From contig CM000429.1 of assembly GCA_000165345.1 (NCBI GenBank), positions 1-64,000 on the forward strand: 64,000 nt of DNA, given 5' to 3'. Of the stretch, positions 48,690-49,075 are shown piece by piece. The position numbers and the translations under genes are program-made. The notes below the pieces were generated by a model, which ran no database searches, had not been told where the DNA came from, and saw only the letters and a program-made list of their open reading frames with translations. Within the stretch, counting starts at the first letter, position 1; every line of letters starts with the position of its first letter.

Positions 48690-49075
48690 AAAATAGTTGT
48701 GGTTTACCTGCATGCAATTAATTACGTGTAAAAAAATAGTAATTATCGCACCGGTGTATGTAATTTTGAAAATCAAAAATACTTGTGGATTACCGGTATG
48801 CAATTACGTAAAAAAAACTGGTTTGTAAAATAACGGTATATGTAATTTAGAACCAAAAAAATATTTATTATGTGGATTACCGGCATGCAATTAGTTAAGC
48901 ATAAAGCAAAACTCAATATTGCACCGGTGCATGCAATTGGAAAATCAAAAATATTTATGTGGATTACCGGCATGTAATTAATAGTGTACAGTAAAAGCTA
49001 TTAGTACACTGGAATTATTAATTACCAAAAATAAACATGCAGTATTCCGGCATGTTGTTATGTGAGTTCTTTAAT
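48690..49075. repeat. Palindrome-rich tandem repeat (two ~175-bp higher-order units, at least 7 copies of the core YACCGGYRYATGYAATT) in a gene-free spacer
   Basis: Copies are cctgcatgcaattaatt (48710), gcaccggtgtatgtaatttt (48751), ttaccggtatgcaattacg (48788), aacggtatatgtaattta (48832), ttaccggcatgcaattag (48877), gcaccggtgcatgcaattgg (48926), ttaccggcatgtaattaat (48963) and ttccggcatgttgtt (49040). The cores contain CACCGGTG, ACCGGT and GCATGC palindromes. Confidence 0.75.

Follow-up and report, generated by a model that had tools for sequence, protein, structure and literature searches.

A Tandem Array of CCGG-Type Sites Conserved Upstream of cgd1_170 in Cryptosporidium, a Candidate Distal Regulatory Module

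The cgd1_170 locus

The stretch of DNA analyzed here (the window) comprises positions 1-64,000 of Cryptosporidium parvum chromosome 1 (GCA_000165345.1, CM000429.1) and comes from a compact genome with 28% GC. Between cgd1_160, a gene of the SKSR family, and the single-copy gene cgd1_170 lies a spacer of 3895 bp (45742-49636) that has a GC content of 20% and no open reading frame (ORF) longer than 66 amino acids (aa). Its downstream part holds a tandem array of ~87-bp units with multiple CCGG-type sites, which is located 580 to 950 bp upstream of cgd1_170 and forms a GC island (31% GC) in the AT-rich spacer. Comparable arrays are found at the same position and on the same strand in several intestinal species of Cryptosporidium, and the sequence comparisons suggest that the array is probably a docking platform for a gene regulator rather than junk DNA. 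The features of the locus are listed in Table 1.

Anatomy of the tandem array

A sequence-only reading of the window had placed a palindrome-rich repeat block at 48690-49075 within a 3.9-kb gene desert and had described it as two ~175-bp higher-order units with at least seven copies of a single 16- to 17-nucleotide (nt) core, ACCGGYRYATGYAATT. Both the desert and the block are real: a repeat search recovers successive copies over 48686-49060 with start-to-start spacings of 86, 87, 87, and 80 bp. The base period, however, is ~87 bp, composed of two ~43-bp half units; the ~175-bp periodicity survives as an 81-nt pair with 74% identity, located 173 bp apart, and is clearer in C. meleagridis, where units U1 and U3 are 85% identical. 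The core needs a similar revision. In its literal form it matches 2 sites exactly and 3 at one mismatch (0 expected), as its consensus blends two site types that differ in length by 2 nt, the A type (CCGG-YATGYAATT) and the longer B type (CCGG-TGYATGYAATT). With flexible spacing, the motif CCGG(N0-3)ATGYAAT has 5 exact copies in the array, and the count of CCGG-type cores reaches 8 when degenerate ones are included (at 48707, 48751, 48793, 48833, 48880, 48924, 48967, and 49047). The palindromes named in that reading (CACCGGTG, ACCGGT, and GCATGC) are all present.

Four parts make up each unit: the A-box (TGTGGAWTACCGGYATGYAATT), the TACGTGT element with an A-run behind it, the B-box ((GC/TA)ACCGGTRYATGYAATT), and another A-rich tail. 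This layout places the CCGG-type cores 40 to 47 bp apart. The A-box itself packs three words, TGTGG, CCGGTA, and ATGYAAT, into ~22 bp. Pairwise identity between units is 63 to 75%, compared with 54 ± 3% for random 87-mers drawn from the same spacer. Tandem Repeats Finder (TRF) did not detect the array, because its units are old and have diverged to this level. The tetranucleotide CCGG occurs 24 times in the 64 kb, with 6 of these 24 occurrences within this single 300-bp stretch, and an array of this kind is very unlikely to have arisen by chance.

Unit 4 additionally contains a short inverted repeat (AGTGTAC ... GTACACT at 48979-49025, with 7-bp arms ~14 nt apart) that takes the place of the TACGTGT/B-box part. 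C. parvum, C. hominis, and C. tyzzeri share it, and C. meleagridis lacks it.

Table 1. Features of the spacer between cgd1_160 and cgd1_170 and of the adjoining genes
Feature	Positions	Strand	Description
Gene cgd1_160	42940-45741		SKSR family; borders the spacer on its upstream side
Upstream part of the spacer	45742-48694		ORF-free; 20% GC; between cgd1_160 and the array; alignable only among the closest species
Whole tandem array	48695-49066	+	4.5 units of ~87 bp each; from repeat search, unit alignment, and composition
Unit U1	48695-48780	+
A-box 1, degenerate	48698-48720	+	TGTGGTTTACCTGCATGCAATTA; CCGG changed to CCTG; holds a full AP2_1-type TGCATGCA
TACGTGT + oligo(A) of U1	48723-48736	+	U2 counterpart, TACGT + A8, at 48805-48817
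B-box 1	48748-48765	+	GCACCGGTGTATGTAATT
Unit U2	48781-48867	+
A-box 2	48784-48806	+	TGTGGATTACCGGTATGCAATTA
B-box 2, ACGG variant	48830-48847	+	ATAACGGTATATGTAATT; contains TAACGG; identical in C. meleagridis and C. hominis
Unit U3	48868-48954	+
A-box 3	48871-48893	+	TGTGGATTACCGGCATGCAATTA
B-box 3	48921-48938	+	GCACCGGTGCATGCAATT; includes the 10-bp palindrome GCACCGGTGC and one TGCATGCA
Unit U4	48955-49034	+
A-box 4	48958-48980	+	TGTGGATTACCGGCATGTAATTA
B-box 4, decayed	49006-49023	+	ACACTGGAATTATTAATT; CCGG changed to CTGG
Partial unit U5	49035-49066	+
A-box 5, degenerate final copy	49038-49060	+	TGCAGTATTCCGGCATGTTGTTA
Proximal conserved block	49502-49561	+	60 bp, 76-135 bp upstream of the ATG; AGAGTGTAG...TGCACGAAATACACACAATTATTACAT / ...ACACACAATT
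Gene cgd1_170 (CPATCC_000419)	49637-50494	+	285 aa; Cryptosporidium-specific; presumed target of the array

Conservation of the array in other Cryptosporidium species

Orthologs of cgd1_170 were collected from ten further taxa, and the surrounding DNA (20-kb loci) was compared. A same-strand tandem array is found at the same position in seven intestinal species, C. parvum, C. hominis, C. tyzzeri, C. meleagridis, the chipmunk genotype I, C. ubiquitum, and C. canis. In five of them (C. parvum, C. meleagridis, chipmunk genotype I, C. ubiquitum, and C. canis), CCGG(N0-3)ATGYAAT is present only on the + strand, 560 to 1170 bp upstream of the ortholog's ATG; outside the array, it has no match in the 64-kb window or in the 20-kb loci. 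The tandem units of these five species are 83 to 96 bp long and can be aligned over their full length, with the A-box, TACGTGTAAAAA, and the B-box as the conserved blocks; C. hominis also has the tandem units, and C. tyzzeri has them in part. The TACGTGT element is conserved, reading TACGTGTAAAAA in both chipmunk genotype I and C. canis and TATGTGTAAAAA in C. ubiquitum, and the A-box core is ~85% conserved between C. parvum and C. canis.

The DNA around the array has diverged beyond alignment in the more distant species. Outside the array, spacer DNA can be aligned no further than C. hominis, C. meleagridis, and chipmunk genotype I; in C. ubiquitum and C. canis, blastn picks up just the 260 bp beside the ATG and, within the array, a stretch of 31 bp. 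In all species, the 3' end of the array lies ~300 to 760 bp from the ATG, a 2.6-fold variation, whereas its distance to the upstream gene ranges from 0.5 to 6.5 kb (~13-fold) and is shortest in C. canis, where one more SKSR paralog occupies the gap. The array therefore travels with cgd1_170.

In the more distant C. felis, C. xiaoi, and C. ryanae, no repeat can be recognized at the orthologous position, but NCGG(T/C)A(T) sites cluster there. Judged by Poisson statistics against the rest of each locus, the clustering of [ACT]CGG[TC]AT has a P value of 4e-4 in C. felis and 3e-6 in C. xiaoi; in C. ryanae, P is 1.6e-5 for CGGTA but 0.047 for the stricter [ACT]CGG[TC]AT. Despite the turnover of the flanks, 7 arrays and 3 clusters are retained, all of them on the + strand and between -300 and -1170 relative to the ATG. 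In C. muris the element is absent; its intergenic region measures 130 bp, and the upstream synteny differs.

The number and the similarity of the units vary between isolates and species. There are 4.5 units in the IOWA isolate and 5.5 in isolate HLJ and in C. hominis, the difference being one extra 88-bp unit (9158-9245 of the HLJ locus L002 and 4153-4240 of the C. hominis locus L015), which makes the array a possible typing marker. The C. tyzzeri assembly (GCA_007210665.1, locus L016, ~3860-4190) has an assembly gap, a run of N, over the 5' part of the array. The array is thus a hotspot of structural variation and assembly trouble. Units of the same species are up to 98% identical in chipmunk genotype I and up to 99% identical in C. 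canis, whereas those of C. parvum, C. meleagridis, and C. ubiquitum have diverged; the array has therefore been repeatedly rehomogenized.

A second conserved element, the proximal block at 49502-49561, is found ~450 bp downstream of the array and is conserved out to C. canis by alignment and to C. ubiquitum by blastn. It is the probable core promoter or 5' untranslated region (UTR) of cgd1_170 and includes the sequence CACACA, which has been published as an AP2 motif of C. parvum (PMC4117751).

The core motif and its recurrence in the ARF promoter

The deeply conserved core of the sites is (A/C/T)CGG(T/C)AT, in which CGG(T/C)AT is invariant. The palindrome ACCGGT is not maintained and gives way to ACGG, TCGG, CGGG, and CCGA variants. 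The sequence-only reading had put its emphasis on GCATGCA and the ApiAP2 proteins, which holds in part: of six matches to the AP2_1 motif BGCATGCAH in the window, three are in the array (48709, 48882, and 48928). However, these matches are not the constrained part of the sites. The GCATGCA half varies between species and is replaced by GTATGTA in other species; in chipmunk genotype I and C. canis, where this half is GTATGTAAT, the A-boxes read CCGGTATGTAAT and the B-boxes do not contain TGCAT. Interspecies comparison thus indicates that the conserved core is CCGGYAT, not the ApiAP2 site GCATGCA.

Published motifs found upstream of C. parvum genes include AP2_1 (BGCATGCAH), motif 13 (WATTGCA), and motif 7 (ACATGY) (PMC3734150), and the published specificities of C. 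parvum AP2 proteins include TGCAT, CACACA, and the G-box (PMC4117751). In its 3' half (GCATGCAATT or ACATGTAAT), the array core overlaps with motifs 1, 7, and 13, whereas the cross-species core (A/C/T)CGG(T/C)AT is not among the published motifs.

The array words reappear in the promoter of the ARF gene. That promoter (54523-54592) consists of an E2F-type GGCGCC followed by AACATGTAAT, TTGG, and ACCGGTAAT and, after ~30 bp, by the G-box-like ATGTGGGGTACA, and this order and spacing are conserved in most intestinal species (loci L006-L012 and L014; the orthologs were aligned by eye). The words CCGGTA and CATGTAAT, which the promoter shares with the array, are conserved in it: CCGGTA is kept in seven loci (C. 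parvum, C. meleagridis, chipmunk genotype I, C. canis, L014, C. xiaoi, and C. ryanae), with one-base variants in C. ubiquitum and C. felis, and CATGTAA is kept in six species. The A-box words are spread here over 70 bp, and the array and the ARF promoter are the only places in the 64 kb that contain ACCGG(T/C)A. The motif is thus conserved in the one further promoter examined, and the footprinting of the array words there means that these words behave as cis-elements elsewhere. An earlier remark on related sequences in promoter elements was also correct, with CATGTAATT located at 27923 and 54531, each time directly after the E2F-type GGCGCC.

An element resembling that of ARF, GGCGCC-AGCATGTAATTT, is found at 27914-27932, upstream of the gene at 27983.

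A candidate homotypic cluster of transcription factor sites

The interpretation that we moderately favor is that the block is a homotypic cluster of transcription factor sites that serves as a distal upstream regulatory module of cgd1_170. The idea of a transcription factor landing pad, one of several offered from the sequence alone, receives real support from the conservation of position and direction across intestinal species and from the footprints of the array words in a nearby promoter. With 8 CCGG-type cores in 350 bp, the array fits the usual description of such a cluster (a short motif repeated three or more times, above chance, in a few hundred base pairs of noncoding DNA), and at the sequence level it qualifies as a homotypic binding-site cluster, built on a previously unlisted motif. 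Its anatomy, its conserved position and orientation, its change in copy number, and the reuse of its words in another promoter are observed directly; from these we infer that a protein binds the array, that cgd1_170 would be its target, and that binding would have an effect in one direction or the other.

The proposed mechanism is as follows. An ~87-bp module would have been built up and kept by tandem duplication, each copy contributing two CCGG-centered sites, the A-box TGTGGAWTACCGGYATGYAATT and the B-box ACCGGTRYATGYAATT, ~43 bp or about four helical turns apart, together with the TACGTGT element and two oligo(dA) tracts. A putative sequence-specific factor would recognize (A/C/T)CGG(T/C)AT and occupy many redundant sites, and the partly palindromic ACCGGT would permit binding as a dimer; TGCAT-binding ApiAP2 proteins are possible cobinders at the GCATGCA variants. 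By disfavoring nucleosomes, phased oligo(dA) tracts may help the pad stay accessible. Once bound, the array would act on the core promoter presumed at 49502-49561, ~450 bp downstream, in a role resembling that of an upstream activating sequence (UAS) or enhancer, or possibly as a repressive element. Unequal exchange would add and remove units while individual sites decay and are replaced, with selection retaining the multisite cluster.

Our leading guess for the factor is a Myb/SANT-type protein. TAACGG is the classical Myb core, and one array copy, B-box 2, reads TAACGG. According to the review literature, C. parvum has 16 Myb-domain proteins, almost all of them uncharacterized. Toxoplasma BFD1 provides an apicomplexan precedent, as the number of its motifs upstream of a gene correlates with the strength of regulation (PMC6978799). 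CACTGG as the BFD1 motif was not confirmed by that paper and serves as a lead only.

Several observations weigh against this interpretation. The array is no better conserved than the adjoining spacer at short distances (94% versus 92% identity with C. hominis and 68% versus 66% with chipmunk genotype I), and single sites have been lost, CCGG having become CCTG in HLJ, CTAG in C. hominis, and CTGG in C. tyzzeri; any selection therefore acts on the cluster and not on each site. A redundancy of sites would explain both the decay of single cores and the spacer-like conservation among close species. A distance of 580 to 950 bp from the ATG is unusually far upstream for so compact a genome, and a CCGG-type motif is absent from the published lists of C. 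parvum motifs and AP2 specificities (PMC3734150, PMC4117751). As to the clustering statistics, the locus L014 has only 2 to 3 sites (P = 0.1 to 0.3, not significant), and the motif and the test window were chosen after the C. parvum clade had been viewed, which leaves C. felis, C. xiaoi, and C. ryanae as the only independent tests.

Alternative explanations

The same two facts, the loss of single cores and, among close species, the evolution of the array at the rate of the flanking spacer, are the main argument for a neutral minisatellite, in which a tandem duplication in unconstrained AT-rich spacer DNA persists by unequal exchange without any function. Such an origin would also account for the polymorphic copy number (with 4.5 versus 5.5 tandem units, the array fits the usual description of a minisatellite, which has units of 10 to 100 bp and a polymorphic copy number), for the recent homogenization of units in chipmunk genotype I and C. 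canis, and for the break of the C. tyzzeri assembly inside the array. Neutral DNA should not, however, be conserved beyond close taxa, and here the module, its orientation, and its distance to the gene are kept where spacer DNA no longer aligns, as repeats in C. canis and C. ubiquitum and as clusters in C. felis, C. xiaoi, and C. ryanae. Furthermore, the A-box core is far better conserved than the remainder of the unit, unequal exchange alone does not explain the nonrepeated core clusters of the three distant species, and the array words leave footprints in the ARF promoter. It is for the deep positional conservation and these nonrepeated clusters that we rate the minisatellite, and with it the neutral satellite that had been considered from the sequence alone, below a regulatory cluster; the resemblance is limited to the copy number polymorphism, and we regard this explanation as unlikely, although it is the strongest of the alternatives.

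A slightly less likely explanation is that a factor recognizing CCGGTAT binds the array as a chromatin landmark or boundary between the fast-evolving SKSR cluster (32838-45741) and the conserved core genes that start with cgd1_170, where it would delimit or nucleate a chromatin domain and set the chromatin state. The array indeed lies exactly where the lineage-specific SKSR paralogs end and synteny with C. muris begins, and it is a sense-oriented, positionally conserved composite-motif array located 55 to 93 kb from a chromosome end. The SPE2 arrays provide an apicomplexan precedent for a role in chromosome end chromatin rather than in classical activation (PMC2829057), and such a landmark would be a functional counterpart of Plasmodium SPE2/SIP2 with an unrelated motif, in a genome thought to be nearly devoid of distal regulatory DNA. 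However, the SPE2-type motif is absent, the conserved distance is that to the downstream ATG and not that to the SKSR genes, and C. xiaoi and C. ryanae retain the cluster with just one upstream family member.

We consider it improbable that the array functions as part of a transcript, either as a long 5' UTR of cgd1_170 with repeated RNA elements (for example, ATG-TAA mini-upstream ORFs) or as the promoter or body of a long noncoding RNA (lncRNA). All copies are on the sense strand of cgd1_170, every A-box contains an ATG, often as ATGTAA, and intergenic lncRNAs as well as polycistronic or long transcripts have been reported in C. parvum (PMC9465071; bioRxiv 10.1101/2025.01.17.633476). On the other hand, the B-boxes of chipmunk genotype I and C. 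canis do not contain ATG, and the strongly conserved promoter- or UTR-like block sits 450 bp further downstream. Folding z-scores are mildly negative (-1.8 and -2.5), as expected of palindromic repeats; no Rfam family matches at E<=1, and RNAalifold predicts 0 consensus pairs over 17 units from 5 species. A known RNA family or a conserved RNA structure was rejected on these results.

A replication origin or a centromere-type element in the gene desert is highly improbable. Such an element would be in keeping with the AT-rich 3.9-kb ORF-free region, the tandem repeat, and the oligo(dA) tracts, and other apicomplexan centromeres are located in gene-free regions. However, the second ORF-free region of the window (35730-39481, 3.75 kb) has no such array, the element is absent in C. 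muris, its position follows the ATG of one gene, and a GC content of 20 to 31% is far from the composition of Plasmodium-type centromeres. Nor do the published CENH3 CUT&RUN maps have a site near 54 kb of chromosome 1, and the CENH3 motifs are GA-rich. That study, which rests on low-depth data, proposes holocentric chromosomes and lists 347 coding and 58 intergenic windows, none of them on Chr1 before 87 kb. An intergenic CENH3 site at Chr1 828,809 seemingly lies near the coordinate of the array in the IOWA-ATCC assembly (GCA_015245375.1, CP044422.1:827,530-827,900, corresponding to Chr1 ~54.2-54.6 kb in the cgd orientation), but it is a different place, because Chr1 of that study runs in the opposite direction (cgd1_360 is at 87 kb).

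A coding function was rejected. The ORFs of the spacer are short (at most 66 aa), and tblastx of the spacer against six species finds the proximal block only; in C. canis and chipmunk genotype I, the short ORFs of the repeat (MWITGMQL...) break off immediately. A decayed SKSR paralog, which would bear on the remainder of the spacer and not on the array, was not supported, as tblastn with four family members against the spacers of six species (C. parvum, C. meleagridis, chipmunk genotype I, C. ubiquitum, C. felis, and C. xiaoi) gave nothing better than E = 0.3. Finally, the A-box had 9 metagenomic matches, all of them single and in bacterial contigs with 43 to 65% GC; these are chance matches and uninformative.

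Comparison with known repeat arrays

With a regulatory cluster as the favored reading, the array can be compared with three known systems. The Toxoplasma gondii SAG1 promoter reportedly carries a tandem 27-bp repeat, identified in 1995 by Soldati and Boothroyd as the main upstream promoter or selector element, whose multiplicity is said to matter. In both cases, an apicomplexan gene is preceded by head-to-tail short modules with a conserved core motif. The SAG1 repeats, however, are 27 bp long, are located at the transcription start region, and reportedly have the core WGAGACG, whereas the array described here, known from its sequence, has ~87-bp units with two CCGG-centered sites each and is found ~450 bp upstream of the probable core promoter.

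The spacer enhancers of rRNA genes (rDNA), such as the 60/81-bp repeats of Xenopus, belong to a multicopy RNA polymerase I (Pol I) locus and are bound by UBF. Here, too, units of 60 to 100 bp repeat pieces of promoter sequence ahead of the true promoter and undergo unequal exchange, copy number polymorphism, and homogenization within species. In contrast to the rDNA spacers, the array belongs to a single-copy Pol II locus, and its words (CCGGTA, CATGTAAT, and TGTGG) resemble the ARF promoter, not that of cgd1_170.

The third system is that of SPE2 and the ApiAP2 protein PfSIP2 in Plasmodium falciparum, in which a composite motif likewise forms tandem arrays, sense oriented and conserved in position and orientation, in long noncoding DNA beside a secreted or variant gene family towards the chromosome end (PMC2829057). 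SPE2 arrays are bound as a landmark and not as single sites (PMC2829057). They differ in that each chromosome end has them, upstream of var genes and in TARE2/3, whereas the array is known from one locus, where it lies downstream of SKSR genes and upstream of a single-copy conserved gene. The SPE2 motif, (T/G)GTGC(A/G)-N4-(T/G)GTGC(A/G), has 0 matches in the window at up to 1 mismatch. Because this defining motif is absent and the only known copy of the array lies upstream of a single-copy gene, we do not regard the array as a member of the SPE2 system. By analogy, the array most resembles the SAG1 27-bp repeats and the rDNA spacer enhancers in its presumed function and the SPE2 arrays in its architecture.

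Gene regulation in Cryptosporidium is poorly understood and has been assumed to be promoter proximal because the genome is so compact. Our search of the Cryptosporidium review literature found no mention of enhancers, insulators, or tandem arrays of cis-elements. Against this background, the locus offers an evolution-filtered test case, a multicopy (A/C/T)CGG(T/C)AT, often within TGTGGAWTACCGGYATGYAAT, that is located unusually far from its gene and is found again in at least one ordinary promoter. The array could be used as bait for a new DNA-binding regulator, as a natural multimerized element for reporter and expression tools, and, through its unit number polymorphism, as a marker of C. parvum isolates. 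As an observation the finding is solid, and its importance is moderate; should the array prove to be simply a tolerated minisatellite, little would be lost.

Neighboring genes and other features of the window

The identity of cgd1_170 was established through the locus tags of the exact sequence and of its orthologs (CHM_1g170, cmbei_100170, and CPATCC_000419). The gene is annotated as encoding a "hypothetical protein," and a literature search on it returned nothing. The protein has identical copies in three C. parvum assemblies and is conserved throughout the genus, with an invariant coiled-coil (approximately residues 70 to 130) and an invariant KYLTGTRFGPS near the C terminus (orthologs P0001-P0011). 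One UniRef entry names the C. hominis ortholog "Shugoshin C-terminal domain-containing"; this label was not reproduced by Pfam at E<=10 or by a profile search of PDB sequences and is best treated as unverified. The gene is ~55 kb from the chromosome end in the 881-kb record and ~93 kb from it in the 920-kb IOWA-ATCC record.

Upstream of the spacer, the genes at 32838-35729, 39482-42469, and 42940-45741 code for secreted proteins and carry SKSR family labels. The part of the spacer between these genes and the array (45742-48694) gave no coding or RNA family signal. A second ORF-free spacer, 3.75 kb long with 22% GC, separates two of the SKSR family genes (35730-39481); it has no internal repeats and no CCGG cluster. 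Although C. parvum is said in the literature to have no extended intergenic regions, this second case makes long spacers seem typical of the SKSR cluster.

The cluster itself differs between species. Where the C. parvum spacer is empty, C. canis has an extra intact SKSR-type paralog of 1058 aa (L009, 5146-8322). In the locus L014, assembled from Logan data (SRR31860986), this extra SKSR gene of C. canis is split over several frames (3899-6796), owing to either a pseudogene or an assembly error. In C. meleagridis (GCA_039657295.1, L006, 276-6950), a called gene of 1888 aa reaches into the spacer and seems to be a fusion of the orthologs of two C. parvum SKSR genes (995 and 933 aa); it is probably an artefact of the gene model.

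Another noncoding tandem repeat is found at 1811-2173, in an ORF-poor stretch near the start of the window, where the GC skew is strongly negative (1001-3000). It is composed of A-rich 15- to 16-bp units (AAAAAAAATTCAAGTGC / AAAAAAACTCAATCC) and has higher-order periods of 49 and 110 bp, with 93% matches at period 110.

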